From: Promethearchaeia archaeon
GTDB lineage: Archaea; Asgardarchaeota; Lokiarchaeia; Sigyniarchaeales; SOKP01
Direction: 5' to 3'
NCBI GenBank assembly: GCA_029856105.1
Contig: JAHQWH010000195.1
Location: 1 to 19,120 of the forward strand
DNA length: 19,120 bases
Shown here piece by piece: positions 1 to 18,426 of the stretch. Both the position numbers and the translations under genes were made by a program. Under the pieces are notes generated by a model that did not search any database, had not been told where the DNA came from, and saw nothing but the letters and a program-made list of their open reading frames with translations. Position 1 is the first letter of the stretch, and every line of letters starts with the position of its first letter.

Positions 1-565
1 AGAAGGAATCGGCAAAATCGATTTGATCGCTTAAAAGTAGCTCCTTACGGAGTTTAGAAATAACTTGAAATACTTCAAATTCATCACTAATCCCACTTTT
101 ATAGCATTCAACCCTAACTGAGGGAATGTCCTCATCGTTATAAAAACTAGAGGTAGTGATATTATCGAATCCTGTATTATCCAATAGTTCGATTAAGAGG
201 AACGGGGGAAAACATAATTTATGCTGTAAACCTTTATGAGGAATTCCATACAACCAACCTAATATCTCTTTTTTCTGTTCTCCGTTTGCTTTTAAATAAT
301 GCTGACAAGCTTTCTCGAGATCAGGAGTTTCAAGGATTAATTTCCCATTAGGTTCTAATACTCTAAAAAATTCACTAAGAGCATAAATAGTTTCAAAAAA
401 ACTTAAGTGTTCAATTATATGAATCGCTTTAATTTCATCGCAAGTATTGTCATCAAATTCTAGGTTAAAAGCTGACATCAGTCTATCAGCCACTAAATCT
501 TCATACAAATCAATATTACAATAATCGGGATCGTATTTTTTTCCGCAACCAATATTAAGCTTCAT
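1..565 (-). CDS. Class I SAM-dependent methyltransferase (Methyltransf_11-like), partial, runs off the left edge; missing from the ORF track
   Basis: Manual translation from ATG at 565-563 is open to the window edge: MKLNIGCGKKYDPDYCNIDLYEDLVADRLMSAFNLEFDDNTCDEIKAIHIIEHLSFFETIYALSEFFRVLEPNGKLILETPD... It has motif I (LNIGCG), HIIEH and the RVLxPxG motif. The ATG overlaps the TGA stop of the upstream peptide gene (ATGA). Confidence 0.9.
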   Translation of the reverse strand, partial: MKLNIGCGKKYDPDYCNIDLYEDLVADRLMSAFNLEFDDNTCDEIKAIHIIEHLSFFETIYALSEFFRVLEPNGKLILETPDLEKACQHYLKANGEQKKEILGWLYGIPHKGLQHKLCFPPFLLIELLDNTGFDNITTSSFYNDEDIPSVRVECYKSGISDEFEVFQVISKLRKELLLSDQIDFADSF

Positions 566-810
566 TTTTTTTTATCAAAGTCTTTTATTTTTACAGTTGA
601 ATATTTTGTTCCGCTAGGATAAGTGTTGCTTATTGTCGATTCAATAAATAATCCAATAAAATAGCCCACAATTGAGAACATTATAATTAAAATAATCAGT
701 AATATGACGCTATTCTTAACATTATCATAGAATAAAACTTTGTTAACTTCTTTTTTAGATAATCCTAGTTCTTTCCCGATTTTATATAGTTGAATAAAAT
801 CTTTCGTCAT
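562..810 (-). CDS. Small single-pass membrane peptide, paralog 3 of 3 (candidate rSAM substrate/precursor)
   Basis: Shares LYKIGKELGLSKKE and YPSGTKYSTVKIKDF with the two neighbouring ORFs. The start is probably ATG at 810 (MTKDFIQ..., 82 aa, matching paralog length, with an SD-like GAGTGA upstream) rather than GTG at 825. Confidence 0.85.
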   Translation of the reverse strand: MTKDFIQLYKIGKELGLSKKEVNKVLFYDNVKNSVILLIILIIMFSIVGYFIGLFIESTISNTYPSGTKYSTVKIKDFDKKK

Positions 811-908
811 TTTCTCAATAATCACTCATAATTTGATGTTAATTTAAATTTTATATTTTTACCATCAGATTAAAATTACATGATTTCTTTAAGAAAAAAT
901 TGTTGAAT

Positions 909-1154
909 TTACTTTTTTTCATTGAAATCTTTTATTCTAATAGTAGAATAGTAAGTTCCTGCTGCATAAGTATTTCTAGAGGCTTCTATTCCTAATATTA
1001 TTATTATAATACCAAAAAAAACAAATGATATTATCAATAGGCTTTTGTATAACAAAATATGTTTACTATTCTCAAATATTAGTACCTTATTAATTTCTTT
1101 CTTATTTAATCCCAATTCTTTACCGATTTTAAAGAGCTTAATTATATCTTTCAT
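909..1154 (-). CDS. Small single-pass membrane peptide, paralog 2 of 3 (candidate rSAM substrate/precursor)
   Basis: 81 aa: LFKIGKELGLNKKEINKV, a hydrophobic segment, then EASRNTYAAGTYYSTIRIKDF. An AGGTGA SD-like motif lies upstream at about 1169-1174 on the minus strand. Confidence 0.85.
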   Translation of the reverse strand: MKDIIKLFKIGKELGLNKKEINKVLIFENSKHILLYKSLLIISFVFFGIIIIILGIEASRNTYAAGTYYSTIRIKDFNEKK

Positions 1155-1193
1155 TATTTTCTAAATATTCACCTATAATTTAAAATTTATCAC

Positions 1194-1442
1194 TTATTTT
1201 TTACCTTTAAAATCCTTTATTTTTACAGTAGAATATAATGTTCCAGCAGGATAAATATGTCTTGAGGCTTCAATTCCTAATATAATAATCATAATTCCAA
1301 AAAAAATAAAGACGATTATCATTAGGATTTTGAAAAATAATGGATATCTACTATCGTCAAATAAAAACACTCTATTAATTTCTTTCTTACTTAATCCTAA
1401 TTCTTTACCGATTTTATATAATTGAAAAAAGTTTTCTAACAT
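1194..1442 (-). CDS. Small single-pass membrane peptide, paralog 1 of 3 (candidate rSAM substrate/precursor)
   Basis: 82 aa: LYKIGKELGLSKKEINRV, a hydrophobic segment, then EASRHIYPAGTLYSTVKIKDF. GGAGG SD at 1453-1457 on the minus strand. Confidence 0.85.
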   Translation of the reverse strand: MLENFFQLYKIGKELGLSKKEINRVFLFDDSRYPLFFKILMIIVFIFFGIMIIILGIEASRHIYPAGTLYSTVKIKDFKGKK

Positions 1443-1476
1443 TTTTAAGATGCCTCCATTAAATTCTATTATTAGA

Positions 1477-2580
1477 TTATTTGAATATTAAGTTGTGATA
1501 CATATTTTTTAATATTGAAATTGTTGAATCCAATTTCCCTTTAATTGGTAATTGTTTCGATGAAAACATTTTATTTTCGATTGCTCTTAGGCAATATGGC
1601 TCATCAAATTCTTTTAAAGCATAAGATGATCCCAAACATCCTCCCCGACATATTTTTACCATATCACAATCTACGCAATAGCCTTTTAACTGTTTTTGCT
1701 TTAATCTTATCTTTTCTAAAATAGTTTTCAAACTCTGCGTTCTAATATTTCCTTCGATAAAACCATCTGGGAGCGTTAAACACCCTTTAATATTTCCATT
1801 GCTCTGAATACCTAAAACTGATAATCCCGCTTGGCATCCCACCCATGGATCCAACCCTAAATTTGGTAAGAACCTTGAAAAATGACCGAAACAATGAGCA
1901 CCAATAACGGGTAATCTTTTATAGGAATACTTTTTAACATTTATTGCAATGAATAATGCAACAGCGTAAAATTCCTCCCTTGAAATCGTTAATTCTCTTG
2001 GAAAGCGCCCAATAGGGATAGCTATCTGGATTTGCCAAGCAATATTTCGATCTAATAATATTTTTTTTATCTTATCTAATTCATTTAAATTAGTTTTACT
2101 TACTGCTGTAATAACACTGACTGGTAATTTTTCTTCTTTTAACCTGTTAATCGCATTTAGTGTTTTTTCAAATGCTCCTGGAATGCCTCTAAGATAATCG
2201 TGGACTTTGGCCGACCCTCCATCTAAACTTAGCGATACGCAGTCAACTTTTAGGCTTTTTAATTTTTGAATGTTATCAATCAAAGTTAATCCGTTAGTAA
2301 CAATTGATAATTCCATTTTATTTTTTTTAATTTCTCTCGCAATTTCATACCAATCGTCTCTAATTAATGGTTCTCCTCCCATTAAAGCAACTCCTTTGTA
2401 ACCACAATCACGGATTTCCCTAACTAATTTTAAAGATTCTTCGGTATTTAGTTCATCAAGACGAGCTTTTCCTGCAGATGATCCACAATGAATGCAATTG
2501 CTATTACACTTTAATGTAATTTCCCATACAGCGCAAGAGGGTTTAATTCTTTGGGATATTAGAGAAGTAATGCTTGGCAT
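1477..2580 (-). CDS. Radical SAM/SPASM-domain protein, resembling the PlpX/PcpX (splicease-type) peptide maturase clade
   Basis: CxxxCxxC (AVWEITLKCNSNCIHCGS), GGEP, SLDG and AWQIQ motifs. SPASM cysteines: GCQAGLSVLGIQSNGNIKGC...GNIR...CVDCDMVKICRGGC...PYC. Confidence 0.93.
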   Translation of the reverse strand: MPSITSLISQRIKPSCAVWEITLKCNSNCIHCGSSAGKARLDELNTEESLKLVREIRDCGYKGVALMGGEPLIRDDWYEIAREIKKNKMELSIVTNGLTLIDNIQKLKSLKVDCVSLSLDGGSAKVHDYLRGIPGAFEKTLNAINRLKEEKLPVSVITAVSKTNLNELDKIKKILLDRNIAWQIQIAIPIGRFPRELTISREEFYAVALFIAINVKKYSYKRLPVIGAHCFGHFSRFLPNLGLDPWVGCQAGLSVLGIQSNGNIKGCLTLPDGFIEGNIRTQSLKTILEKIRLKQKQLKGYCVDCDMVKICRGGCLGSSYALKEFDEPYCLRAIENKMFSSKQLPIKGKLDSTISILKNMYHNLIFK

Positions 2581-2664
2581 ATCTTTAATTTGGACTCAAT
2601 ATACTAAATTATATGTTATTAAGTAAATTATTAAATGTTTCCATCCAAAATACATAACTGTTGA

Positions 2665-2805
2665 AAAATTGCTATTTGCCAGAAGGATTCTGTCTTCATA
2701 CTTAGTATGGATTATACATAAACATATCGATTTTACAATGTGGTGGATGGTTTCCCCGATTGGACTGGAGAGAAATTAATCAATAATAAGGAATTCAATG
2801 GATAA
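2665..2805 (+). pseudogene. Possible degenerate fragment of a rhodanese-like domain
   Basis: Stitching frames gives roughly IAICQ-GF--SYLVWIIHKHIDF-NVVDGFPDW, reminiscent of rhodanese C-x-x-G-x-R-S...NVxGGxxxW. It needs several frameshifts and has no start codon. Confidence 0.2.
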
Positions 2806-3690
2806 TCAATAATCTATGGGCCATTCGAGCAAGGATACAATTAAATTTTTGTTAGATAATCCTCCTCGAGTAAGTGTACCTACAAAATTTTCTCGTTTAA
2901 ACATTTTTTTTAAAACATACTTTAAAAGTTGCTTATCCAGAAGTCCTTTTTGTTTAGCTTCATTTTGAAATCTATGAGCTTTCAGATGTAGTGAATTAAT
3001 CTCATCCATTTTATCTTTTAAAAACGATCTGCCTTTAAAAACGCCCTTCCCAGTAGTAAAGAGAAGCAAGTTGTCCATTCCCTTTGTGAAATCATACAAT
3101 TTTTTAATTGATTGAAATATAAGGGAGATATCTTCGGGAATGTCTGTGTCTTTACCAAATATCATTCGATATTTTGGCATTACTACATCGTTGATAAATG
3201 CCCACTGTTGTTTTCGTTCAACTAAACTAATTAGTTCAGGAGCATGTCCAGGCGTATCCATTATATCAAAAATATATTTACCTGACTTAGAATTAATTGA
3301 ATCTTTTAATAGTTCAGCCTGAAACGGTTGGTAGTCTACGCCCCAAGTCATTTGTCGATAATCGGGATATGCTTTTTCTTTCATTAATAGTGGAATAGCC
3401 AGCTCACTAGCGAAAACGGGAATGTTAAATTCTTCTTGGAGCATACGACCACCACCACAATGATCTTCGTGGTTATGTGTAATTACACACTTCTCAATCA
3501 TATTCTCGGAATCAAGAGTTTTTATAAATTTGCGTAAATCTTCTACTCCTCCTGGAGCACCTGCATCAATTAATAACCCGTCAACTAAAAATGCTGAAGT
3601 CCAAAAAGGTTGTGGCATTAATTCGCTGTCTGAAGACCATTTCCATTCTAATATCTCGTTATTACAGTGATAAATTATTTGAACAACCAT
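2806..3690 (-). CDS. MBL-fold metallo-hydrolase
   Basis: LIDAG, THNHEDH (HxHxDH) and TPGH motifs. Confidence 0.9.
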   Translation of the reverse strand: MVVQIIYHCNNEILEWKWSSDSELMPQPFWTSAFLVDGLLIDAGAPGGVEDLRKFIKTLDSENMIEKCVITHNHEDHCGGGRMLQEEFNIPVFASELAIPLLMKEKAYPDYRQMTWGVDYQPFQAELLKDSINSKSGKYIFDIMDTPGHAPELISLVERKQQWAFINDVVMPKYRMIFGKDTDIPEDISLIFQSIKKLYDFTKGMDNLLLFTTGKGVFKGRSFLKDKMDEINSLHLKAHRFQNEAKQKGLLDKQLLKYVLKKMFKRENFVGTLTRGGLSNKNLIVSLLEWPIDY

Positions 3691-3833
3691 AATTTTCTCA
3701 AAAGTGTAGTTCTGTTGAGTCTATTTAAAAAATTTTGATATTAAATAATAGTGATACCTATTTAATTGGTTATATTGTTCGTGTAAATATTCCTATATAA
3801 AACGTTTAAACAGTTTTAAAGTTCGATTAAATT

Positions 3834-3849
3834 AAAAAAAGAAAAAAAA
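3834..3849 (-). terminator. Putative archaeal oligo-T terminator downstream of mscL
   Basis: T8-C-T7 run on the minus strand about 25 nt after the mscL stop. Confidence 0.45.
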
Positions 3850-3874
3850 GTTATATTTGAAAATCAAATCTTTT

Positions 3875-4252
3875 TTATTCAATACCGAGTTTTGCTGTGT
3901 ATTTTATCAACAAAAAGATTACAAAAGCCACAATGATAAAAGTTATAAGGTCTCCTAAAAAAGCCCCTATTCGAAAAACCCAAAGCGTGAATTCCTCCCA
4001 TGGAATATTAGCCGGTAAGAAAAAAGTGACTAAAGGCATTACTAGATTATCTACAAGCGACTGAACAAGGTCCCCGATATATTGACCCATAATAAAAGCA
4101 ATAGCTAAACCTAAGACCTTATATTTCATTATAAAATCTTTAAATTCTTCTAAAAGACTTTTCTTTTTTCCAGGCTCCTTAGGAGGCGGAGTAGGTGCTA
4201 ACGCTTCTCTAATTTTCTTTAATTCTTCTAACATTTCTGAATCTGTCGTCAT
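3875..4252 (-). CDS. mscL: Large-conductance mechanosensitive channel MscL family protein
   Basis: S1/TM1 pattern EEFKDFIMKYKVLGLAIAFIMG...LVQSLVDNLVMP and TM2 pattern IGAFLGDLITFIIVAFVIFLLIK. Confidence 0.9.
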   Translation of the reverse strand: MTTDSEMLEELKKIREALAPTPPPKEPGKKKSLLEEFKDFIMKYKVLGLAIAFIMGQYIGDLVQSLVDNLVMPLVTFFLPANIPWEEFTLWVFRIGAFLGDLITFIIVAFVIFLLIKYTAKLGIE

Positions 4253-4465
4253 ATTATTTCACTTAACAATTTTTGATTTGGATTAATGTTTTTTTAAATT
4301 TAATTTGGTGTTAATTTTTATTTCGTTTAGTTTTAATTAAATATTTTTTTAATAATTTATTAGATGGGGTTGAAAATTAATTCGAAAGCTAACTTAAAAA
4401 AAAAAAACCCAATCTTTTTACAATTAGTCAAAAAATATTTAATTCTAAATTGATTTCATTTAATT

Positions 4466-5320
4466 ATGAGTAATACTGGATTTAATCAATTTCAAGGAGA
4501 TGTTAATACTGAAAGGATCAAATATATTGCTGATCCTCAACTAAAAAACATCGTTAATGTTTCAATTGCCTTAGCTCGACCTTTAATAGTAAAAGGAGAG
4601 CCCGGTACAGGGAAAACTTTGTTATCCCACGCTATTGCCGAATCTTTAGGAAAACGATTAATTGTATGGAATGTAAAAAGCACAACGGAAGCAATTGATG
4701 GTTGCTACATGTACGATACCGTCCAGAGATTAAACGATAGTCGATTTGGAAGCGATGATCGTAACGTAAATAATATTAAAGATTACATTACACTTGGACC
4801 GCTAGGGGAAGCCTTTGACTCTGAGGAGCAAGTCGTCCTTCTTATCGACGAGGTTGATAAGGCAGATATCGAGTTTCCAAACGATCTTTTACAGGAATTA
4901 GATGTAATGGAATTTTACGTTAAAGAAACCAAAGAATTTATTAAAGCTAAAACTCGACCTATAGTTATTATTACTTCAAATAACGAAAAGGAACTTCCTG
5001 ACGCGTTCTTACGCCGATGTGTGTTTCATTGGATAGAATTTCCTTCAAAAGAATTTATGGCAGACATCTGTAATCTTCACTATCCACATCTGAAACAAAA
5101 CCTCTTAGATCAATGCCTTAAAAATTTCTATGCGTTAAGAGCGATCACAAAATTAAGGAAAATGCCCTCTACATCTGAACTTCTGGATTGGATCGGTGTC
5201 TTATTGAAAAGTGGAATAAGCCTAGACGAACTGAAGCACGGAATTCCATTCCTTGGAGTGCTCCTTAAAAAGGAAAAAGATCTCGAAATAGCTTTAGATA
5301 AAATTAAGTTCCCTACATGA
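4466..5320 (+). CDS. MoxR-family AAA+ ATPase (CoxD-like)
   Basis: Walker A GEPGTGKT, YDTVQRLND, Walker B LLIDEVDKAD, and ITSNNEKELPDAFLRRC. Confidence 0.93.
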   Translation: MSNTGFNQFQGDVNTERIKYIADPQLKNIVNVSIALARPLIVKGEPGTGKTLLSHAIAESLGKRLIVWNVKSTTEAIDGCYMYDTVQRLNDSRFGSDDRNVNNIKDYITLGPLGEAFDSEEQVVLLIDEVDKADIEFPNDLLQELDVMEFYVKETKEFIKAKTRPIVIITSNNEKELPDAFLRRCVFHWIEFPSKEFMADICNLHYPHLKQNLLDQCLKNFYALRAITKLRKMPSTSELLDWIGVLLKSGISLDELKHGIPFLGVLLKKEKDLEIALDKIKFPT

Positions 5321-5355
5321 TCTATTTTAAAATATTTGGTTATAGGATTAAATAA

Positions 5356-6588
5356 ATGTTTGTTGAGTATTTTTATTACCTAAAAGAAAGGTTACCGGTA
5401 AGTATTACGGAGTATATGACCCTTATGGAAGCCCTTGAAAAAGGCCTTATTCATAACATGGTCGAGTTCTACTATATTTCGAGATCTATATTATGCAAGA
5501 ACGAACATCACTTTGATATTTACGATATTTCGTTTGCTAACTTTTTCAAAGACGCATCTTTAAAGTTTCCAGAAGAAATCAAACAAGAAATATGGGATTG
5601 GCTTCAAAAAGATATTAATCCACCAGAATTACCTGACGGATTTCAGGAATTTCTTAACCAACATTTTGATATCGAAGAATTACAAAAACACTTCGAAGAA
5701 TTACTTAAAAAGCAGGATGAGGAGCATAATTTTGGAGATCAATGGATTGGAACTCAAGGTTTTTCTCAATTTGGTCATTCGGGGCAAAACCCAATGGGCA
5801 TGAGGGTAGGTGGCTCGTCCGGTATGCGTATGGCAATACAAATCGCCCAAAAAAGAATTTTTGCCGATTACAGAAAAGATATCGTTTTAGACACACGCCA
5901 AATTAAAGTAGCATTGAAGCGTCTAAAAAAATTGGAAGAGATCGGGAAGCAAGACGAGTTAAACATGGATAAAACAATTGATGAAACTGCTAGAAATGGT
6001 GGAGACATTGAACTTATTTTCGAGAAAAAAAGGAAAAACAACGTTAAACTTATCCTTCTTATGGATGTTGGGGGTTCAATGACCCCCTACGCTCATCTTG
6101 TCAACCTACTTTTTTCTGCTGCCAACAACATGTCACATTGGAAAGACTTTAAGTTTTACTACTTCCACAATTGCGTATATGACCAACTATATTTCAATGC
6201 CCAAAGAAATTCTGACGAGGCTATAGATTTCGACGATCTTTTGAAAAAATACGATAATAAGTACAAAGTAGTTATCGTTGGCGACGCTGCTATGGCTTCT
6301 TGGGAGCTTACGGAAAGATATGGTTCGATTTATTATTACCATAGAAATGAGATGCCCGGAATTTATTACGTTAAAGAAATAGCCAATCACTTCAAGAACA
6401 ATGTTGTTTGGTTAAACCCTGAATTAATTCGTTTAGAGTGGGTACCATGGACGAGGAAGATTATTTCGAGCCTTATCCCTATGTTTAACTTGACGATTGA
6501 AGGAATCGAAGAAGCGATGAATTATCTAAGAAACAGCGGGAAAAACCAATTTACCACAGTTCATAGACTTAAGGGACTGAATTATTGA
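5356..6588 (+). CDS. VWA-domain CoxE-like protein, partner of the MoxR ATPase
   Basis: WIGTxGxSxFGHSG, LLMDVGGSM (MIDAS variant), YFHNCVY, VGDAxM and WLNP motifs; directly downstream of the MoxR gene. Confidence 0.88.
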   Translation: MFVEYFYYLKERLPVSITEYMTLMEALEKGLIHNMVEFYYISRSILCKNEHHFDIYDISFANFFKDASLKFPEEIKQEIWDWLQKDINPPELPDGFQEFLNQHFDIEELQKHFEELLKKQDEEHNFGDQWIGTQGFSQFGHSGQNPMGMRVGGSSGMRMAIQIAQKRIFADYRKDIVLDTRQIKVALKRLKKLEEIGKQDELNMDKTIDETARNGGDIELIFEKKRKNNVKLILLMDVGGSMTPYAHLVNLLFSAANNMSHWKDFKFYYFHNCVYDQLYFNAQRNSDEAIDFDDLLKKYDNKYKVVIVGDAAMASWELTERYGSIYYYHRNEMPGIYYVKEIANHFKNNVVWLNPELIRLEWVPWTRKIISSLIPMFNLTIEGIEEAMNYLRNSGKNQFTTVHRLKGLNY

Positions 6589-6597
6589 AAGATATCT

Positions 6598-8262
6598 CTA
6601 AGCTATCTTTCTCAATACTTCTTTCTCAATAGTTAAATCGTAAGAATCGTAAAAAATTGAATAGTATTTTTGGTAAAATTCTTTTTTCTTTGTTAAAACC
6701 AATTTTGAATCTTCCTTTTCTGCTTTTCCTGAAGCCCAAAATATTTTTCCTGAACCATTCATATTAAATTTCTCTTGGTTTTTGATAATTTCTCCTGACT
6801 TTATCACGAATTCTATGTTTTCAAGCGCTTTCTTTAAAGTTTCAACATCTTTCAAAACATCGACATCGTTTAAGTTCAAATTCAAAACATTCAGGTCACC
6901 ATCAGCACCTAAACCTAAATTACCTTTTATGCTTCCAATACCTAGCGATTTAGCTGGGCTCGAACGAGTTAAAATTACGAAATCGTTAAAAGTCAGTACT
7001 TTGTCATTACTGGATAGAGAATTATCTTTTAAAAAGTCGGCATCCATATCTTTCATATAACTTTCACGAGCTTTGTTGCTCAATAACCAAGTTGCGATTT
7101 CAGGAACTTTAGTTATATTTGCATAGTTCGGGTAGTTGACTGAGAATTGCATTTGCCACGGGTCAATATTTAACGCTAAATCAATAGCGTTTGCCCACAA
7201 AATACAATCGCTTCCCTTTTTTTTACTAAATTTTCTTAGAGTTACAAATGAATCTCCTTCTGATTCTACCGATGATCTAATTAGTTTATACGCGTTTTCC
7301 GAACTTATTAGATTATTTACCAAATGACGGTCAGATGTAATTAACGGATTCAACTTGTCAAATCCAATAAAACCTAAATCCATGTCAAAATCGTGGTTCT
7401 CGTTGAAAAATTTAATCAATTCTGAGTTATCTCCGTCAGAATTATAAGCTGAAACGTGTGCAAGGTGAAATATTTGAGACCTTTTAATTTCAAGGGAGTT
7501 GTTTGTGTTAGGTTTTAAGCCAAGCGATTTGATCTTGTTTAGAATTAACACTAAATTCTCTTTAGAAAGAGCAGATTCGTAACCTTCGATATGGGCGTGA
7601 ATAGAATGAGGTAGACCTAAAGACTCTACAAATTTAGTGAGATTTTCGTAAGCATCCATAGGAGTAAAGTTAAATAACCTTCCCTTTTCGGTTAGGCTTT
7701 TTCTAACCTTCTTCCAATTCCAATATTCCGCTTCGAAGGGATTATAGGCTTTGAAGCCAAATCCTTTAACTTTATCTAAGAGATCTGACAAAAAAACGGC
7801 ACCTTCTTCAACCTTTCCCCGCTGAAATTCGAGTTCTAAAGCCCATAAATTACTGGTGTTTAATAAAAATGCTTTATCTAGCACTGGCAATCGTTTAAAA
7901 TCAAATATCGTCTGTTTTGAGAGGGACGGGAAAACATTAGCTTCGAGAATAAATGTATATCCGTTCGAAATATAACTTTTAGCAATGTTTTCTAAAGTTA
8001 AACCTTTCCATATATCTTGGAACTCTTTATTTTCAGATCCCAACAATCGCGCCCAGTTAACTTGCTGGGAAGCTATGTGAGTGTGCGTATCCACTGCCGA
8101 CGGAACAACCGTTTTTCCTTTAGCGTCGATTTCTTTAAGATCGTTTTTGTTAGTAAACTTTTCCACTATTTTTCCGTTTTCAATTAAAATATCTTTTATT
8201 TCTCCTTCAATATTGTTTATCGGGTCAAAAACAAAACCATTTTTCACAAGGAGCTTAGCCAT
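6598..8262 (-). CDS. fwdA: Formylmethanofuran dehydrogenase subunit A-like amidohydrolase
   Basis: LLVKNGFVFDP N-terminus, DTHTH, GFKAYNP, LGLPHSIHAH, TRSSPAKSLG and KGNLGLGADGD. The start is probably ATG at 8262 (MAKLLVKNG), just after the fwdD stop, rather than 8301. Confidence 0.88.
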   Translation of the reverse strand: MAKLLVKNGFVFDPINNIEGEIKDILIENGKIVEKFTNKNDLKEIDAKGKTVVPSAVDTHTHIASQQVNWARLLGSENKEFQDIWKGLTLENIAKSYISNGYTFILEANVFPSLSKQTIFDFKRLPVLDKAFLLNTSNLWALELEFQRGKVEEGAVFLSDLLDKVKGFGFKAYNPFEAEYWNWKKVRKSLTEKGRLFNFTPMDAYENLTKFVESLGLPHSIHAHIEGYESALSKENLVLILNKIKSLGLKPNTNNSLEIKRSQIFHLAHVSAYNSDGDNSELIKFFNENHDFDMDLGFIGFDKLNPLITSDRHLVNNLISSENAYKLIRSSVESEGDSFVTLRKFSKKKGSDCILWANAIDLALNIDPWQMQFSVNYPNYANITKVPEIATWLLSNKARESYMKDMDADFLKDNSLSSNDKVLTFNDFVILTRSSPAKSLGIGSIKGNLGLGADGDLNVLNLNLNDVDVLKDVETLKKALENIEFVIKSGEIIKNQEKFNMNGSGKIFWASGKAEKEDSKLVLTKKKEFYQKYYSIFYDSYDLTIEKEVLRKIA

Positions 8263-8263
8263 C

Positions 8264-8641
8264 TTATTCGATACCTCTGATTTTTTGGATAATTTCTTCA
8301 AATTTCAGTATTGGCTCGCGCGTCGCTTCCACGCTTACTACTATGTTTTTATAAACGAGTTCATCATTTAATATTTCTGTTAATTGGTTTGACCATATTG
8401 ACACGGGCATCGTTATGGTTCCTTCAGGTACATTATCGTCTTTTTCAATTTTTACTATAATATTCCTTTGATTATTCGATATTTTTAAATGTAAGCTTGA
8501 AACTAAATTGAGTTTGTCAAAATCTTTTGGATTAATAAATGATATCGCTAAGTTTTCTTCTAAGGATTGTTTGTTTCCAAAACTATGTTCTTTTACTTGA
8601 TCGTTGTCAATTTTTCTCATAGTATTTAATAGGAAATCCAT
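8264..8641 (-). CDS. fwdD: Formylmethanofuran dehydrogenase subunit D-like (molybdopterin dinucleotide-binding domain)
   Basis: LLNTxR N-terminus, INPKD, VPEGTITMP..WSNQL and V-x-V-E C-terminal strand; lies between fwdB and fwdA. The start is probably ATG at 8641 (MDFLLNT), 1 nt after the fwdB stop, with GGAGG upstream. Confidence 0.82.
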   Translation of the reverse strand: MDFLLNTMRKIDNDQVKEHSFGNKQSLEENLAISFINPKDFDKLNLVSSLHLKISNNQRNIIVKIEKDDNVPEGTITMPVSIWSNQLTEILNDELVYKNIVVSVEATREPILKFEEIIQKIRGIE

Positions 8642-8642
8642 A

Positions 8643-9947
8643 TTATTTCGCGCCTCCATTTAATTTTTCAATCAATTGGTTCAGTAGTTCTTCGTCCGAA
8701 GGAATGTTATTAGGTGGATTTAAAATTTTTTTTAATTCAACGGGTACTTGATCTATACGATAAGCGAGTCCACTACTTTCAATTCCCGTTATTGCTGTTG
8801 GTAATACTATATCTGCTATGCGTGAAGTTGCTGAATTATGGTTATCTATGAGTATAAGTGGTTTTTTTGCTAATTTGGAGCTTAAAGAATGTGGTAAATG
8901 TGAGATAGGATCGGTTCCGACGATAATAGAACAATCGAAGTTTTCTTTATTAATTTTTGAAATGATTGTGTCTTCTGACTTAACTAATTTTTTACTTTCA
9001 AATTGTAATTTACCGCTTACTCCGTATGAGGAAAGCGCTACATGATCGAACCCTGCCATGTTAAAGTGCCCTCCCAATAAAAGCAGCGATATTCGACCTT
9101 TTACCTGCCTTGTATTTATCAATTGTAACAAGTCTAGTAATTCCTCCATAAGATCGTAATCAGCGTGAGGTTGTATTACGCCCTGTCCAAGAATAATTAC
9201 GCCGTTTTCTGCACCAGTTAGGTGGAGCAGCAAACGCTTAAGATCGTTTTTATCTACTCCGGCAACACCTCCAGATGGGATGCTATCGGCACTACAACAT
9301 TCTTCTTTTAACATCTGAATTAATTCAATATCTTTATCTGGTTCAATAATTAATGCTAGATCTCGCACGCCCATTACATTGAAAGAAGCGGTTTTTACAG
9401 GATCTATAATTACTAGCGTCTTTATTTCTCTGCCAGTCATGCGAAATTTACCTCTGGAAAAAAGAACTTTATTTAGAAGGCGAGGAATCGTTTCAGCTGG
9501 ATTTGCCCCCCATAAAATAATCAAGTCTACTTTGTTAATAATTTCTGTAATCGTTGTCAAATTTATTCCTTGCGCTTTTGCTTTATTTAAAATCTTTCCT
9601 TGACAAATTGAAGCGTTTGAATCGATAAATCCGTTTATTTCTCTTGCTAAATCCATTCCAGCTCTTTGAGCCTCACAGGTTACGTTTGAAAACCCATAAA
9701 GCAATGGAGCGGAAGAATTTTTGATGATTTCGACAGTTTTTGCTAACGCTTCTTCCCATGATGTATTAATCAATTCGTCGTTTTTTCGAATCATCGGACT
9801 TGTAATTCTATTCTGAGCGCTAACTTGATCAAATCTTTCCTTTCCTTTTAAACAGGCTCCAATAACCTCATCAATAAATAGACCATCGCTCTTAACTATT
9901 ATGTCATCACACAATAATGAGCAACCAGAACAAGGGTATCTTTTCAT
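8643..9947 (-). CDS. fwdB: Formylmethanofuran dehydrogenase subunit B-like molybdo/tungstopterin protein
   Basis: CSGCSLLCDD...ACLKG [4Fe-4S] motif, PLLYG, DSNASIC, WGANP, GHFN, GTDPISHLP and PTAITGIESSGLAYRIDQVP. Confidence 0.9.
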   Translation of the reverse strand: MKRYPCSGCSLLCDDIIVKSDGLFIDEVIGACLKGKERFDQVSAQNRITSPMIRKNDELINTSWEEALAKTVEIIKNSSAPLLYGFSNVTCEAQRAGMDLAREINGFIDSNASICQGKILNKAKAQGINLTTITEIINKVDLIILWGANPAETIPRLLNKVLFSRGKFRMTGREIKTLVIIDPVKTASFNVMGVRDLALIIEPDKDIELIQMLKEECCSADSIPSGGVAGVDKNDLKRLLLHLTGAENGVIILGQGVIQPHADYDLMEELLDLLQLINTRQVKGRISLLLLGGHFNMAGFDHVALSSYGVSGKLQFESKKLVKSEDTIISKINKENFDCSIIVGTDPISHLPHSLSSKLAKKPLILIDNHNSATSRIADIVLPTAITGIESSGLAYRIDQVPVELKKILNPPNNIPSDEELLNQLIEKLNGGAK

Positions 9948-9984
9948 AATTAAATCCTTAATAATTTTTTATAAATATAAATCG

Positions 9985-10452
9985 TTATACATATTCAATT
10001 TTAATTGCTTCGCGAGGACAGTAAGTTTCACATACGCGACATTCTCTTTCTCGGCCCTCCGAGTCCAACCTTCGACAATGTTCAAGGTTTAATAATTCAC
10101 ACTTTCCTCCTATCACTTGAAAGAGTTGGTGTTTCTCAGGGGGATATTCTGGAGCTTTACCGCTTAAACTAGGGGGACAATATCTTGCGTTTACAGGACA
10201 TATGGTCACACAAATTCCACACCCATCGCAAAGGTCTTCGTCTACATTTATTCTCAGTTCTTTTTGTTGCCCTTCTTCGGAACCAAGCATTTCCTTTAAT
10301 TTATCGTATTGCTTTTTATATTTTGGTTTTAAAAGGGGAGGACAATCGTCTATTTTAGCTTTACCCTGCAATAAATCTAAACTGAAAGCCATGCAAGTGG
10401 GCTTCCCGCACTCTTTACAATTAGTTTTAGGCAAAAACTTGTACAATTCCAT
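9985..10452 (-). CDS. FwdG-like ferredoxin: N-terminal FeS (PF04060-type) domain plus 2x[4Fe-4S] domain
   Basis: LPKTNCKECGKPTCMAF...CPPL, CDGCGICVTICP and C...CRVCETYCP; first gene of the fwd operon. Confidence 0.82.
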   Translation of the reverse strand: MELYKFLPKTNCKECGKPTCMAFSLDLLQGKAKIDDCPPLLKPKYKKQYDKLKEMLGSEEGQQKELRINVDEDLCDGCGICVTICPVNARYCPPSLSGKAPEYPPEKHQLFQVIGGKCELLNLEHCRRLDSEGRERECRVCETYCPREAIKIEYV

Positions 10453-10632
10453 GAAATTTTGAACTGGTATGTTAATTCACCTTAGAATTATTAATAATAT
10501 CGAGTCCTACGATTAATTAATATTTAAACTTATTAATTTCTTTAGATTATTGAATATAAAATAGTGCACTCTCGTACATAATTAATCATATATAATGTAA
10601 AGTATAAAAAATCAACAAGAGATAATTGCATA

Positions 10633-12060
10633 ATGTTTGTTAAAATTCTTGATGATGAACAGATTGATAAAATTCACCAAAAATCGCTACATATTCTTGA
10701 AAATATTGGTGTGATCGTACCTCACGAAGAAGCGTTGGTGCGTTTTGCTACTTTTGGAGCAAATGTGGATAGCAAAAGAAGTTTGGTAAAAATACCTTCA
10801 GATTTAGTTATGGAGTTCATTTCAAAAGCGGGAAAGAAGTTCGCTATTTACGGGCGCGATCTTTCTAAAAAGGCAGAATTTGGCGTTGGAAAGCGCAATT
10901 ACAATACTTCTGCTGGTCAAACCTTTTGGGTTGATAATATCGGCGATCAAAGAAGACACTCGACTCTCAACGATGTTAAAGAAGCTGTAAGATTTGCTGA
11001 TGCCTTAGACCAAATAACGATTCCAGGTGCTATGTCAGATCCTCTTGAAATCCCCATAGAATGGAGGTGCTTGCAAGTTGCTTTTGAGATGGTATCTCAT
11101 ACAGATAAACCGATTTATTTTTGGTTTAATGATAGAAACTCAGCAAAACAACTTATCGATTTTCTTGTAACTCTTAGGGGAGATGAGAAAAACGCTCAAA
11201 AATACCCTTTATTTTATCCTTTATTTGAGCCTGTTAGTCCTTTAAGCTTTCCTTTTAACGGGATTGACCTACTTTTTGAAACCGCTCGACTTAACTTACC
11301 GGTACATATTGGACCGATGGCCCAGATGGGAGTTTCCGCACCCGCTACTATTGCAGGAACTTTAGCTCAGGAAAACGCGGAGATTTTAGCAGCTATTTGC
11401 ATTACTCAGATTATCCGTGAAGGGATGCCTATTTGTTACGGTGGTATTTGTCACGCATTTGATATGAGAACAGCACAAATAATATTTGGCGGTCCAGAAC
11501 AAGCCATTTTTAGCATAGCAACGAGCCAGATGGGGAAACACTACGGATTTCCAGTTTATATCAACGCCGGATTAACCGATTCTAAGAGACCAGATGCTCA
11601 AGCTGGTCTTGAATGTGGAATTACACTCTCGTTGGGAATAGCTTCTGGAGCGGATATTTTTGGCCATATGGGGATTTGTGGTATGGACCAAGGTGCTTCT
11701 CTGGATATTCTTGTTATGCAATCAGAAATCATCTCTTATGTAGAAAGCGCAAATAGAGTATTAAATTTCGACGAAGATGATTTTGCCATGGACATTATTG
11801 ACGATGTTGGACCCAAGGGAACCTTTCTTAACAAACGCCACACGGTTAAAAATTTTAAGAAAGAATTATGGTTCCCAACGCTCTTAGATAGGAAAAATTA
11901 CGGTAATTGGCTAAAGACTGGAGCTAATGGGATGGAAAAACGATGCCGAATACGTAAAGAAGAGATTCTTTCAAAGCATAAAACAGAACCTTTAGCTGAT
12001 GATATTAAAACTGATCTTGAAAAAGTTATAGAAAATGTAAAAAAAAATCTTACAACTTAA
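10633..12060 (+). CDS. Trimethylamine methyltransferase (MttB/MtgB) superfamily protein, non-pyrrolysine
   Basis: IHQKSLHILENIGV, PVSPL, APATIAGTLAQENAEILA, FDMRT, GGPE, GLTDSKRPDAQAGLE and VGPKGTFL motifs; no in-frame amber codon. Confidence 0.93.
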   Translation: MFVKILDDEQIDKIHQKSLHILENIGVIVPHEEALVRFATFGANVDSKRSLVKIPSDLVMEFISKAGKKFAIYGRDLSKKAEFGVGKRNYNTSAGQTFWVDNIGDQRRHSTLNDVKEAVRFADALDQITIPGAMSDPLEIPIEWRCLQVAFEMVSHTDKPIYFWFNDRNSAKQLIDFLVTLRGDEKNAQKYPLFYPLFEPVSPLSFPFNGIDLLFETARLNLPVHIGPMAQMGVSAPATIAGTLAQENAEILAAICITQIIREGMPICYGGICHAFDMRTAQIIFGGPEQAIFSIATSQMGKHYGFPVYINAGLTDSKRPDAQAGLECGITLSLGIASGADIFGHMGICGMDQGASLDILVMQSEIISYVESANRVLNFDEDDFAMDIIDDVGPKGTFLNKRHTVKNFKKELWFPTLLDRKNYGNWLKTGANGMEKRCRIRKEEILSKHKTEPLADDIKTDLEKVIENVKKNLTT

Positions 12061-13117: not shown

Positions 13118-13465
13118 ATGATCCATAGATTAAAGGAAGCTAAAGAAGAACATTTATATAATTTGCAAGTAGAATTAAATCGAATCAAATCAAAATTAAT
13201 TGAAATGGGTGCTCATAAGATAATTTTATTTGGCTCAGCCGCTCGGGAAGAATTAGGACTTATGAGTGATATTGATTTAATAGTGGTTATAGATTCAAAT
13301 AAAGACTTTATTGAAAGATTATCTTTTTTTTATCAAAAAATCCAGCCCATAGATGCTGATCTTTTGATTTACACTCCACATGAGTTTATTCGAATGATGG
13401 AAAATAATTTATTCATACAACACATATTAAAACAAGGTAAAATAATTTTTGAGCGAACCAAATAA
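13118..13465 (+). CDS. Minimal nucleotidyltransferase (MNT), putative antitoxin
   Basis: ILFGSAAREELGLMSDIDLIVV, an exact GSx10DxD motif, plus a third acidic residue in DLLIYTP. Confidence 0.92.
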   Translation: MIHRLKEAKEEHLYNLQVELNRIKSKLIEMGAHKIILFGSAAREELGLMSDIDLIVVIDSNKDFIERLSFFYQKIQPIDADLLIYTPHEFIRMMENNLFIQHILKQGKIIFERTK

Positions 13466-13862
13466 ATATTATAAAGAAGCAAAAAGATGGATTGAACAAG
13501 CTAAAGAAGATTTAAGTAGTGCTAAAATCCTTTTTGATGCTAAACGGTATTATTTAGTATGTTTTCTCGCTCAACAAATTGCAGAAAAAGCTTTAAAATC
13601 TGTGATTTATTTTAATAAAGAAGATTTAGTATTAGGTCATTCTGTTAGAAAATTAGTAGAATGGGCAAGTAAGTTTGATAAGAGATTTAAAGATCTTATT
13701 AATGAAATCTCTATTTTAGATAGTTATTACATTCCTACGAGATATCCTAATGGATTACCTGATGGGATTCCAGCAGAGATTTTCAATCGAGAGGCTGCAG
13801 AAAGTGCTTTTAAATTAGCAGAATCCACCATTAAAATTGTTACCGATTATCTTGATTTCTAA
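13449..13862 (+). CDS. HEPN domain protein (PF05168/COG2250 type), MNT partner
   Basis: W..QAKEDL..A, CFLAQQIAEKALK, GHS and YIPTRYP motifs; TTG start overlaps the MNT gene by 17 bp. Confidence 0.92.
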   Translation: MSEPNKYYKEAKRWIEQAKEDLSSAKILFDAKRYYLVCFLAQQIAEKALKSVIYFNKEDLVLGHSVRKLVEWASKFDKRFKDLINEISILDSYYIPTRYPNGLPDGIPAEIFNREAAESAFKLAESTIKIVTDYLDF

Positions 13863-15448: not shown

Positions 15449-16372
15449 TTATAATTTTGAGAGAATGAGTTTTAATCTTGCATATATTTTGTTAATAGCC
15501 TGACTGGCCACTGATTCCGGGGCATATTCTACGACAGGTTCTGCGTAAGACATAGCTTTAGGAATAGATAAATCAAAATTAATTCTACCTAAAATATCAA
15601 AACCTGCTTTATCAATGTATTTGTTTAATAGCTTTTGGCTCGCGCTTTTTAAATCTGCTTTATTAATCACAATCCCGAAAGGAATGTTAAACTGGTTAAC
15701 CATCTCAATCGCTCGTTTCATATCGTGCAATCCTGAGGGAGTTGGCTCTGTTATTGCAACTATATAGTCTAGACCTGAAACTGTAGCAATTACGGGACAA
15801 CCAATTCCTGGAGGTCCATCAATTAAAATAAGATTTGCATCGTTGAACTCTTTGAGATTTGTAGCGTGCTGCTTAACTTCTGAAACTAATAATCCCGAAG
15901 TGGTGCTCCCTAGCTTAGTTTTGCCGTAAATTAAAGGAAATCCCGCATCTGTTTCATATGTTATTATTTCTCCACTTTTAACCGAATTGATTTCAAACGC
16001 ATCCTCAGGGCATAAAACTCTACACGCTCCACAACCTTCACAAGCTAAATAATCGATAACAGGAATGTTATTGTCCTCATCCCAATTTAACGCTTTAAAT
16101 TCGCAAAAATGGTCGTCATAACATTGTTTGCAATTCACGCATTTTTCCTCTAAGAATGTGGCCTTTTTTGTAGTAAACGTGTCTTGAGTTAGTACGTCTT
16201 CCTTAGATTTCGGTGGTAGTATTAAGGCTAAATTAGGGGCATCCACATCGCAATCTAATATAATAAGATTAATGTCCTGATCTTTATGTGCTATGCTTGC
16301 TAGAGAAGCTACGAGCGATGTTTTCCCAACACCTCCCTTTCCAGAAATCACAGCAATCTTTTTTCTATTCAC
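15449..16372 (-). CDS. MinD-superfamily P-loop ATPase with inserted ferredoxin domain (COG1149)
   Basis: SGKGGVGKT, DCDVDAPN, CVNCKQC....C, CEGCGACRVLCP, DGPPGIGCP, TEPT and NKAD motifs; GTG start overlaps the upstream stop. Confidence 0.92.
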   Translation of the reverse strand: MNRKKIAVISGKGGVGKTSLVASLASIAHKDQDINLIILDCDVDAPNLALILPPKSKEDVLTQDTFTTKKATFLEEKCVNCKQCYDDHFCEFKALNWDEDNNIPVIDYLACEGCGACRVLCPEDAFEINSVKSGEIITYETDAGFPLIYGKTKLGSTTSGLLVSEVKQHATNLKEFNDANLILIDGPPGIGCPVIATVSGLDYIVAITEPTPSGLHDMKRAIEMVNQFNIPFGIVINKADLKSASQKLLNKYIDKAGFDILGRINFDLSIPKAMSYAEPVVEYAPESVASQAINKIYARLKLILSKL

Positions 16373-17286
16373 TTTGAAATTTCACCCCATTTTATTAGAT
16401 TCTCAAAAATTATTTCAAACGATTTGTAGCCTGCTCCATCCCTATCAAATTTGCTTTTTTCTTCCATTAACGGAATACCTTGACAATACGAACTAACAAT
16501 TTCTTCGTCTAAAGGAATGTCGCCTAAAATTTCTATACCAATTTCTTCTAATTCTTTCAAAAATTTATCTTTGTAACCTAACAACGACGATCGATTCACA
16601 ATAGCCTTGTGTTCTTTCTTCAATAAATCAATCAATTCTATAATTCTTAACAAATCAAGCTTTCCGAATCTCGTAGGTTCTGTAACTGGTATGACAAGAT
16701 CAGCCCCACTAAGTAATTCTTCTACGTCGCAATGGGCTCCAGGCGCAGTATCCAATATAACGATGTCGTATTTTTCTGGTTCTGTTTTTATAACATTTTC
16801 TAAATTTTCCATCAATTTATTTACAATTACGGCTGAGCGCGCTTCTGCTGGTTTTAATTCGCCTAGAAAAAGATCTATGTTAAATGCGGAGGCCGTGTAA
16901 GTCCATCCAATAACTTTTAAATCCGGTTCAATTGCATTAGTCGGACAAATCTTATAGCATAATTTGCAACCTGAACAAACTGTCGATATTGGAATTGGAT
17001 AGGAATCTTTGATGTATAAGAGTGCGTGTGTTTCACAATTTTCTGCGCACAATCCACACTTAGTACATTTATCTTCTATTATTTTTGGTAGGAAATAAAG
17101 AACTTCCGTTTTATTCTTAAGCTTTGCGTTTAATAATAAATAAGTATTCGGGTTCTCAACATCTCCGTCGATAAGAAGTACTTTAAAACCACGATTCTTA
17201 AACAATATTGCCAAATTCACGGCAACCAGCGTTTTCCCCGTCCCGCCCTTGCCACCTGTAACACAAATGATTTTAGGTTCGACCAT
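16369..17286 (-). CDS. MinD-superfamily P-loop ATPase with inserted ferredoxin domain (COG1149), paralog
   Basis: GGKGGTGKT, DGDVENPN, CTKCGLCAENC, CSGCKLCYKICP, DTAPGAHC and VTEPT motifs. Confidence 0.92.
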   Translation of the reverse strand: MVEPKIICVTGGKGGTGKTLVAVNLAILFKNRGFKVLLIDGDVENPNTYLLLNAKLKNKTEVLYFLPKIIEDKCTKCGLCAENCETHALLYIKDSYPIPISTVCSGCKLCYKICPTNAIEPDLKVIGWTYTASAFNIDLFLGELKPAEARSAVIVNKLMENLENVIKTEPEKYDIVILDTAPGAHCDVEELLSGADLVIPVTEPTRFGKLDLLRIIELIDLLKKEHKAIVNRSSLLGYKDKFLKELEEIGIEILGDIPLDEEIVSSYCQGIPLMEEKSKFDRDGAGYKSFEIIFENLIKWGEISK

Positions 17287-17338
17287 TTTTAGCCTTGCTT
17301 TTTATAAATAAGTTATTTAAATTAATATTATTAGTTAG

Positions 17339-17794
17339 TTAAAATTGTCTTCCTTGACCGCCACCGCCACCGCCCATTCCTCGACCGCCACCGCCCATTC
17401 CTCGACCTCCGCCTCCACCCATACCTGCGTGAGCTCCAACGTTTGAAGTCGCAAGAACTTGCAATTTACCACCTAAAAGCAAATCTATTAATTCTTTCAC
17501 AGTTCCACCTTGTGATTGATAAATTTTAATATTTAAAGCGCTTAAAGAATTCGACGCGTTAGGACCTAAATTGCCTACAATGACCTCTGTGGCTCCGTTA
17601 TTACCAATAATTTGAGCAGCTTGAATTCCCGCACCACCCATCGCACCTTGCGCAGCGTTTGCAACGGATTTAACTTCTACTATTTCGTTATTCTCAATTG
17701 TAACAAACGTGAAGCTAGAGCACCTTCCAAAACGATTATTCATAACCTCATTCAAGCCTTTATCTCCAAATGTAGGAATACCAACTATTACCAT
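17339..17794 (-). CDS. NifB/NifX-family (dinitrogenase FeMo-cofactor biosynthesis-like, COG1433) protein with Gly/Arg-rich tail
   Basis: RFGRC, GGAGIQAAQ and GNLGPNA motifs; C-terminal GMGGGGGRGMGGGGRGMGGGGGGQGR. Confidence 0.9.
   Translation of the reverse strand: MVIVGIPTFGDKGLNEVMNNRFGRCSSFTFVTIENNEIVEVKSVANAAQGAMGGAGIQAAQIIGNNGATEVIVGNLGPNASNSLSALNIKIYQSQGGTVKELIDLLLGGKLQVLATSNVGAHAGMGGGGGRGMGGGGRGMGGGGGGQGRQF
17363..17404. repeat. Two perfect tandem 21-bp repeats (ACCGCCACCGCCCATTCCTCG), encoding RGMGGGG on the minus strand
   Basis: Read directly from the sequence; flanked by degenerate partial copies. Confidence 0.9.
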
Positions 17795-18033
17795 TTTTTA
17801 TATATCACCTTTTTTAGTATGATTAAACTAAATTTTGATAGAATTTAAATTTTTTTGAATAATTATCAAAAATGATTTCCTCTAAATAATTATAATTTAT
17901 AAGCATCTTGTTTAAAAATAGATTTGATTTTAAGTTAAGAATAACAAAAAGTTAGGAAAGGTTTAAATTTCCTTAAGATTACCTTATTTTGAGCTATAAT
18001 TTCTAAAAGTATGATTTAGAACATCATAGTTTT

Positions 18034-18426
18034 TTATCTTTGCCCCATTTCAGCACCTTTTATAAGCTCTGCTGATTTGGTCATATTTAATTTTCCATCT
18101 AGGTAAAGATTCGTTAATTCTTTTATTGTAATTTCTTGATCAGGTCCTTGAAACGTTTTAATATTCAAGGAACTTAATGCTTTGGAAGCATTTGGTCCTA
18201 ATTTGCTAACAATTAACTTATTACCGCCATTATCCTTAATCAATTTAGCTGATTGCGTACCAGCACCTCCTGGTTCGTCAGCTGCAAAATTTTTGATTAC
18301 TTTAACTTGTATAATTTCATTATTATCTAAGGTTATAAATGTAAAGCTGTCACATCTACCAAATTTGAGATGGAAAATCTCATTTAATCCTCCTTCTCTA
18401 TAACTCGGTACTGCTATTATTTCCAT
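18034..18426 (-). CDS. NifB/NifX-family protein (COG1433), paralog lacking the Gly-rich tail
   Basis: KFGRC, GGAGTQSA and LGPNA motifs; clearly paralogous to 17339-17794. Confidence 0.88.
   Translation of the reverse strand: MEIIAVPSYREGGLNEIFHLKFGRCDSFTFITLDNNEIIQVKVIKNFAADEPGGAGTQSAKLIKDNGGNKLIVSKLGPNASKALSSLNIKTFQGPDQEITIKELTNLYLDGKLNMTKSAELIKGAEMGQR

Follow-up and report, generated by a model that had tools for sequence, protein, structure and literature searches.

A candidate archaeal maturation cassette joining a radical SAM/SPASM enzyme, small tyrosine-tailed proteins and a methyltransferase-TPR partner

Are the three short, paralogous proteins encoded beside a radical S-adenosylmethionine (SAM) enzyme of an Asgard archaeon the substrates of that enzyme and, if they are, which residue would be altered and where would the product end up? 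The question was raised by the window analyzed here, the whole of contig JAHQWH010000195.1 (19,120 nucleotides), which belongs to a 92%-complete genome assembly of a Promethearchaeia archaeon. In this window, a row of five genes on the minus strand, all of one orientation, encodes a radical SAM enzyme with a SPASM domain (rSAM), the small proteins P1, P2 and P3, and a methyltransferase (MT). Comparison of the locus with its relatives indicated that the small proteins are likely substrates of the rSAM. The comparison also pointed, with less assurance, to one invariant tyrosine in their C-terminal tails (Tyr70 in P1) as the probable site of modification.

The cassette and its continuation beyond the contig end

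An earlier note, written from the letters of the window, had described five co-oriented genes with short spacers, the last of them overlapping P3 by ATGA, and each element of this layout was confirmed in the sequence. The spacers between successive genes measured 34, 39 and 83-98 nt, the overlap lay at 562-565, and a GGAGG/GGTGA-like motif was located upstream of the start of each small gene (GGAGG in the case of P1). The open frame of P3 also permits a GTG start at 825 (87 aa); the ATG at 810 is the start chosen by gene callers on near-identical contigs. The two peptide blocks quoted in the note were likewise exact, namely LYKIGKELGLSKKEINRV, LFKIGKELGLNKKEINKV and LYKIGKELGLSKKEVNKV at the N-terminus and the tyrosine blocks YPAGTLYSTVKIKDF, YAAGTYYSTIRIKDF and YPSGTKYSTVKIKDF at the C-terminus, and so was its remark that the peptides are free of cysteine, none being present in P1, P2 or P3. 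No Pfam or NCBIfam family was matched by P1-P3. A profile built from them matched 391 clusters of proteins grouped at 90% identity, and 54 representatives when the level was 50%; the named ones stem from metagenome-assembled genomes (MAGs) of Promethearchaeota. Hence, these five genes are real and not chance open reading frames (ORFs).

The gene that had been read as a methyltransferase does encode a methyltransferase domain (Methyltransf_11/23 in Pfam), but the window holds only the first 188 aa of a longer protein in which this domain is followed by helical repeats. Metagenome contigs 99.8-99.9% identical to positions 1-11442 of the window extended the locus, and on them the full-length product has 439 aa and consists of a class I MT domain fused to an all-helical TPR-like domain (Pfam TPR_2); it is called MT-TPR below. 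After MT-TPR came a fourth and more divergent paralogue of 89 aa, in which both blocks are retained, then a protein with six transmembrane (TM) segments, and then two more ORFs without assigned function. The assembly of the window's own genome breaks inside the MT gene, and the locus resumes at the end of contig C92 (5165-5646) after a gap of about 2.3 kb, in which the remainder of MT-TPR is located together with the fourth paralogue and the 6-TM gene.

Extension of the contig had been proposed in the earlier note as a way to find a protease, a transporter or a recognition element (RRE) of the kind known for RiPPs, peptides made on the ribosome and modified after translation. The extended locus contained no protease, no RRE, no other recognizable maturation gene and no conserved exporter. 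A convergent ABC-2 transporter gene downstream was considered as an exporter and set aside, as it was found near the pair of rSAM and MT-TPR in only two of about 14 lineages. Upstream, a metallo-beta-lactamase gene adjoins the cassette only in close relatives and an MscL gene is confined to the Loki family; both are absent from distant loci and were rejected as parts of the system. Two downstream genes were also considered as additional substrates and rejected: d103, which had been suggested by its Y-S-T, and d178 (178 aa, the second of the later ORFs), which has a Y-S-T as well and whose homologues lie far from any rSAM and occur also in a genome without the system. The Y-A-S of the 6-TM protein was not conserved. 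In genome G218, a homologue of this 6-TM protein (locus L040, 1816-2472, plus strand; gene partly masked by X) bears the tail motif of the small proteins at its C-terminal end (...Y-A-T-G-T-K-Y-S-S-I-G-V-K-D-F).

Table 1. Coordinates of the five cassette genes in the window
Feature	Position	Strand	Description
rSAM/SPASM enzyme	1477..2580	-	367 aa; CxxxCxxC at 2485-2508; Cys-rich SPASM part 1591-1836
P1	1194..1442	-	82 aa; leader-like block 1368-1421; one hydrophobic helix; Tyr tail 1209-1253; Tyr70 codon 1233-1235
P2	909..1154	-	81 aa; leader-like block 1080-1136; Tyr tail 924-968; Tyr69 codon 948-950; 62% identity to P1
P3	562..810	-	82 aa from ATG at 810; leader-like block 736-789; Tyr tail 577-621; Tyr70 codon 601-603; 50% identity to P1
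Methyltransferase + helical-repeat (TPR) protein	2..565	-	first 188 aa, truncated by contig end

Linkage, architecture and topology of the small proteins

A scan of 400 genomes of the phylum, in which rSAM orthologues were called at an identity of at least 60%, detected the peptides in 55 of the 134 genomes of the window's family (56 when the window's own genome is counted). An rSAM orthologue was present in all but two of these peptide-bearing genomes; in one of the exceptions the contig ends at the peptide, and in the other a weak rSAM fragment with a stop was observed. The peptide and rSAM genes stood side by side wherever their coordinates were compared, and genomes with two rSAM copies carried peptides beside each copy. 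Three further genomes contained a piece of the rSAM cut at a contig end, and no peptide was found in them. Genome G219 carries an orphan copy of the small-protein gene on its contig C71, which is 8.9 kb long (locus L149, 3028-3306, plus strand); neither an rSAM nor an MT-TPR gene lies within 3 kb of it, and a full cassette is present on another contig.

At greater distance, 35 diverse loci with an rSAM homologue were searched with hidden Markov models (HMMs) for small proteins of the two architectures described below, type A and type B. One or the other was found within 5 kb, mostly within 500 nt, in 32 of them. Two of the three misses were seen on inspection to carry related soluble peptides, so that the count rises to 34 of 35, and the remaining miss was a bacterial WOR-1 locus. 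The co-occurrence of a peptide HMM with this rSAM clade, put forward in the earlier note as a check, was thus near-complete in the window's family and held in all but one of the diverse loci. Longer or fused peptide forms were not found in a large protein database, which is weak evidence, as one fused form is known in a genome locus.

The coupling of the methyltransferase to the system, also claimed in the note, proved to be general, since MT-TPR was encoded in almost all loci, as an obligate partner. The pair of rSAM and MT-TPR is the conserved core of the system. Full-length MT-TPR with an adjacent rSAM was found in Asgard MAGs of Loki-, Thor-, Hod- and Heimdall-type and, outside Asgard, in Thermoplasmatales/Thermoplasmata, in one Aenigmatarchaeota MAG, one bacterial Elusimicrobiota MAG and one bacterial WOR-1 MAG; the pair itself recurs in three bacterial MAGs.

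Across these lineages, the small proteins had in common an N-terminal helix block of the form IGxxLGL..E-I and a tyrosine tail. Type A proteins (window, Thor and Elusimicrobiota) consist of the N-terminal block, one membrane helix and the tail Y-P-x-G-T-x-Y-x-T-V-x-x-x-D-F. The Thermoplasmatales peptides are of type A without the hydrophobic helix; they are soluble, have 57-67 aa and end exactly in ...Y-G-[TS]-x-S-I-K-D-F. Type B proteins (other Asgard lineages, Thermoplasmata and Aenigmatarchaeota) have 120-170 aa, a related block at the N-terminus and two or three helices, with Y-P after the first helix and a tail ...Y-x-[VT]-[YF], several of these tails being Y-G-V-Y; all that they retain is G50, the Tyr of the tail and a Y-P pair.

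When 49 diverse type A sequences were compared, Y70 alone was invariant, and G12, G16, L17, Y64, G67 and D77 were each conserved in at least 90%. The peptides of the window have L-Y-S, Y-Y-S and K-Y-S at this site, and their tails end K-D-F-x-K-K. Outside the window's family the residue after the Tyr was G, A, N, D, E or F, with Y-G in the Thermoplasmatales and Thor relatives. In distant lineages, the N-terminal block and the Tyr block were kept while the membrane helix was altered, multiplied or lost. Because these two elements are portable and the middle is free to vary, they would correspond to a recognition leader and a modified core, and the roles that the earlier note had assigned to the two blocks were supported in this way.

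Variant arrangements were also observed. On a Euryarchaeota UBA33/Thermoplasmatales-type contig (locus L066, 2199-2579, plus strand), a soluble ORF of 126 aa is made up of two tandem units, each with a leader block and a Tyr tail; this locus and four related Thermoplasmatales-type loci have two tandem rSAM genes ahead of MT-TPR. In the 5.8-Mb Asgard genome G128 (locus L051, 6521-7034, minus strand), three Lys-rich soluble ORFs of 46, 54 and 65 aa lie between the MT and the rSAM. Their ends are P-P-x-Y-G-V-Y, with G-Y-P-F/Y upstream, and the usual N-terminal block is absent from them; two large TPR-only genes adjoin the MT in this locus.

The topology was deduced from 164 members of the family, in which Lys and Arg within 15 residues of the helix averaged 3.5 on the N side vs 1.2 on the C side, and the tail after the helix had a median length of 25 aa. 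By the positive-inside rule, this excess would place the leader in the cytoplasm and the tail outside. No TM segments were predicted in the rSAM or in MT-TPR, so that modification would have to precede insertion and would probably take place in the cytoplasm. The small proteins resemble tail-anchored membrane proteins in their single hydrophobic helix close to the C-terminus, the shortness of the tail behind it (about 25 aa) and the excess of K/R on the N-terminal side; such a mode of insertion would give enzymes of the cytoplasm time to act. The type B relatives differ in having two or three helices, and the analogy applies to the membrane step only. Since no protease or exporter is conserved, the product would more likely be a membrane protein in modified form than a free peptide, and it probably stays membrane-anchored. 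The term RiPP, which the earlier note had applied to the system, was therefore not supported in its sense of a released natural product.

The enzyme pair and its candidate chemistry

Pfam recognized Radical_SAM (1.4e-27) and SPASM (23.4 bits, cut-off 21.5) in the enzyme. The motif CNSNCIHC occupies residues 25-32, and its cysteines C25, C29 and C32 were invariant in 31 homologues, as were the SPASM cysteines C249, C267, C302, C305, C311, C315 and C330. The radical SAM domain begins at residue 20, and an N-terminal RRE/PqqD domain, which many though not all rSAM/SPASM maturases possess, was absent from the rSAM and from the neighboring genes in the Pfam and NCBIfam searches. In the case of MT-TPR, the GCG, NxD, AD and EH signatures of SAM binding did not vary among 12 homologues, which reach down to 22% identity, so that its MT domain is probably active. 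An AlphaFold2 model of the protein (pLDDT 89.5, pTM 0.86) comprised a Rossmann MT domain at 1-156 and an all-helical domain at 161-426. As this helical domain is always fused to the MT domain and the rSAM has no RRE, MT-TPR may also take part in holding the peptide.

The explanation that we prefer, and that we regard as rather likely when taken as a whole, is a peptide/protein maturation system. In it, the cytoplasmic rSAM/SPASM enzyme would recognize the N-terminal helix block (IGKELGLSKKEI) of P1-P3 and of the fourth paralogue, and would carry out radical chemistry on the invariant tail Tyr (Y70 in ...GT-x-Y-S-T-V...), possibly together with a second conserved Tyr (Y64, in "YP"). MT-TPR would hold the peptide by its helical domain, add a methyl group, or do both. 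Modification in the cytoplasm would come first and would be followed by a tail-anchored-like insertion, with the N-terminus in and the modified tail out, and there would be neither cleavage nor export as a free peptide. For the reaction itself, a backbone edit resembling tyramine splicing at x-Tyr-(Ser/Gly/Ala) may be named tentatively as the leading candidate.

Tyramine splicing is the loss of C8H9NO (135.06 Da), by which an alpha-keto-beta-amino residue is formed. Spliceases such as PlpX excise the tyramine unit at X-Tyr-Gly, and in the binary splicease systems there is no Y protein and the leader helix docks on the enzyme (PMC11414181, PMC11626197, PMC11002830). The archaeal cassette is similar to the spliceotide systems, whether of type I (PlpX/PcpX with a Y protein) or binary (RhaX/RhaA, RcsX and RasX; PMC11414181, PMC11626197), in that an rSAM/SPASM gene stands beside several small precursor genes and the target Tyr precedes a small residue. 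The binary systems are also without an RRE, and no Y-like gene of the type I kind was found at the locus. Furthermore, TIGR04103 (nif11-class maturase 3) was the best or second-best NCBIfam match for every clade member tested. In eight distant members, TIGR04103 (187-219 bits) and TIGR03913, the GDL-motif maturase family (up to 235 bits), were again the top two. A TIGR04103 locus on a Nostoc plasmid had the published spliceotide layout, with a Nif11 precursor ending ...LYGLPPELF and a downstream gene for a Y-like protein of 71 aa.

The second of these families belongs to the GDL-motif (DUF1843) rSAM/SPASM systems, which to our knowledge are themselves uncharacterized. TIGR03913 was the first or second NCBIfam match at 176-235 bits (176 bits for the window rSAM, cut-off 591.75), and the GDL/DUF1843 loci carry several tandem small paralogues with Tyr-Gly/Ala near one end. 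Unlike these systems, the archaeal enzymes stay below the 592-bit cut-off, and their peptides are unrelated, have no DUF1843 and bear the Tyr at the C-terminal end. The two best named families both adjoin peptides with a Tyr before a small residue, as was apparent from the Nostoc TIGR04103 locus and the GDL/DUF1843 loci inspected. On plasmid pAT1 of Aureibacter tunicatorum (locus L142, 1704-4474), three tandem DUF1843 peptides starting x-Y-G/A, a GDL-type rSAM and, directly downstream, a class I methyltransferase parallel the archaeal cassette; this methyltransferase was considered as a homologue of MT-TPR and rejected, since no BLAST match was obtained.

Several results weigh against the proposed maturation by a splicease-like enzyme. 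The window rSAM reached 203.1 bits with TIGR04103, its best NCBIfam match, against a cut-off of 725, and thus falls short of the splicease family. All 23 sampled MT-TPR-linked enzymes were excluded, in a maximum-likelihood tree, from a clade (100/99) made up of the TIGR04103 enzyme of Nostoc, two GDL/DUF1843 enzymes and one from Tropicibacter, the outgroup branches being very long and the deeper order therefore unsure. The canonical XYG site is not conserved either: among 166 sequences of the window's family, the invariant Tyr is followed by Ser in 159, by Gly in 5 and by Ala in 2. On sequence criteria, the window rSAM belongs to neither TIGR04103 nor TIGR03913, since it scores well short of both cut-offs, stands outside their clade in the tree and has a Tyr-Ser rather than a Tyr-Gly site. 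A search with the fold of MT-TPR returned only generic class I methyltransferases (E ~5e-5, 12-20% identity) and gave no clue to the acceptor. Modification before insertion is plausible for proteins of 82 aa and less so for the multi-TM type B proteins of 150 aa.

Docking of the leader was addressed by complex prediction, in which the rSAM and P1 were supplied as alignments together with SAM and three 4Fe-4S clusters, and three controls were included. The score of rSAM with P1 was 0.46 (runs 0.44, 0.46 and 0.63), that of the best control was 0.01, and the runs had at least 78% of their contacts in common, with a partner pLDDT of at least 62. The mark applied to this score is passed by 58 of 80 solved complexes and by 2 of 110 mismatched pairs, and seven of the 80 solved complexes and both mismatches are among the passes at scores of 0.60 or less. 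The value for rSAM with P1 is accordingly a weak pass in favor of docking; no interface was given, so that the binding block is not shown by it. An identity of the N-terminal block with a Nif11-type leader was rejected, since hhalign gave the expected register with one Nostoc precursor at a non-significant level (E 0.12, probability 0.5%) and nothing with the other.

Beyond the scores (203 vs 725 bits), the separate clade and the Tyr-Ser site, the cassette differs from the spliceotide systems in its obligate MT-TPR, its archaeal hosts and its putative membrane-anchored substrates, for which there was no sign of leader removal or export. The proposal can also be put in a broader and more speculative form, in which a distinct archaeal rSAM clade with an obligate MT-TPR would install a non-canonical Tyr-derived residue at x-Tyr-Ser/Gly of small tail-anchored envelope proteins displayed at the surface. 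The product may then be a ketoamide/beta-amino backbone edit or the outcome of a chemistry not yet described.

The main alternative, which we consider unlikely, is that the rSAM forms a C-C or C-O cross-link, either as a cyclophane of three residues (Y-S-T, Y-G-V or Y-G-T), in which the ring of the Tyr is joined to the beta-carbon of the second residue after it, or as a link between Y64 and Y70. Position two after the invariant Tyr was always T, S or V, a pattern that fits the aromatic-X-X cyclophane motif known from triceptides, and the residue right after the Tyr is not fixed as Gly. Two Tyr are conserved in both architectures, and cross-linking is a common outcome for SPASM enzymes, of which SkfB, PqqE, CteB and SuiB were the nearest solved relatives in a PDB sequence search that gave no close one. 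Nevertheless, the maturase families of the triceptide type were outside the best 25 NCBIfam matches, among which the splicease family came first. A Tyr-Tyr link would, moreover, be awkward in type B, where a stretch of about 70 residues with one or two membrane helices separates the two.

It is less probable still that the small proteins are not substrates, and that the rSAM and the MT have a small molecule such as a tetrapyrrole, a lipid or a cofactor as their target, while the small proteins serve as anchors, chaperones or regulators that tether the enzymes to the membrane. The soluble versions of 57-67 aa imply that anchoring cannot be their common role, and several paralogues per locus with a single invariant Tyr suit a substrate better than a scaffold, as does a tail motif that is portable and tandem-repeated. 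The heme-pathway families AhbD and NirJ were among the better NCBIfam matches (130-168 bits) and the N-terminal block resembles a helix-turn-helix; the top named families, however, are peptide maturases, and no tetrapyrrole or lipid genes are conserved nearby. What speaks most directly for such a role is that the rSAM-MT pair is the deepest conserved unit, the two genes abutting in several lineages with the small genes elsewhere in the locus.

The mycofactocin (MftA/B/C) and pyrroloquinoline quinone (PQQ; PqqA/D/E) systems are similar to the cassette as proposed in that a SPASM rSAM acts on a Tyr of a small ribosomal peptide, and their enzymes gave moderate HMM and PDB matches; PqqE aligned over the full length, and the MftC family reached 122.6 bits with the window rSAM (cut-off 265) and 123-148 bits across clade members, below the splicease and GDL families. 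A redox cofactor derived from the Tyr in this manner, tethered in Loki and free in Thermoplasmatales, would agree with the wide and vertical distribution in anaerobic archaea, which is not patchy like that of antibiotic clusters, and with the type B tails in Y-G-V-Y, reminiscent of the G-V-Y end of the mycofactocin precursor, but it is very improbable, as the Tyr is not C-terminal, the loci conserve no peptidase, flavoenzyme or homologue of PqqB/C/D or MftB/D/E, neither an MftB or PqqD chaperone nor downstream cofactor-tailoring genes are present, and a system carried by about 40% of the genomes of the window's family is rare for a core cofactor.

In relation to known systems, the cassette would be a form of radical SAM/SPASM peptide maturation. 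No description of the cassette or of the peptide family was found in the literature searched (on radical SAM and RiPPs in Asgard and on spliceotides in archaea). The word "undescribed" in the earlier note stands for the curated family libraries and for this literature; it does not extend to the 2022 mining survey, which lay outside that search. Because that survey is reported to have covered bacterial and archaeal genomes (PMC11626197), part of the clade may already be among its predicted systems.

If the tail Tyr is indeed edited, the editing of peptide backbones or side chains by rSAM enzymes would reach beyond the secondary metabolism of bacteria and include a protein modification that is widely inherited in archaea, the closest prokaryotic relatives of eukaryotes among them. 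Its substrates would be membrane-anchored, and the system would represent a genetically encoded modification of membrane proteins and not a secreted natural product. Spliceases already serve as tools in protein engineering, and a new enzyme clade with a preference for Tyr-Ser and a built-in partner would be of interest in that field. With soluble precursors from Thermoplasmatales and short proteins from Loki, the question is open to direct experiment.

Other genes in the window

Additionally, several genes away from the cassette were noted. At 13118-13862 (plus strand), a nucleotidyltransferase gene (Polbeta/NTP_transf_2) and a HEPN gene overlap at their ends and form a typical MNT-HEPN toxin-antitoxin-like module, which is located in the kilobase of the window with the highest AT content (GC 0.25). 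The stretch 15449-18426 (minus strand) encodes a pair of P-loop ATPases of the MinD/ParA type, into which 4Fe-4S ferredoxin motifs are inserted, and after them two small proteins of the dinitrogenase FeMo-cofactor-binding family (Nitro_FeMo-Co). An MttB-family (trimethylamine methyltransferase) homologue of 475 aa is encoded at 10633-12060 (plus strand); its frame has no in-frame stop, and it is presumably a non-pyrrolysine member. Its neighbors on the other strand are a split molybdopterin oxidoreductase, an FeS protein and an amidohydrolase. Finally, a Ras/Roc-family small GTPase gene begins at 18654 on the plus strand and is truncated by the contig end (18654-19118), a eukaryote-like signature that is expected in Asgard.

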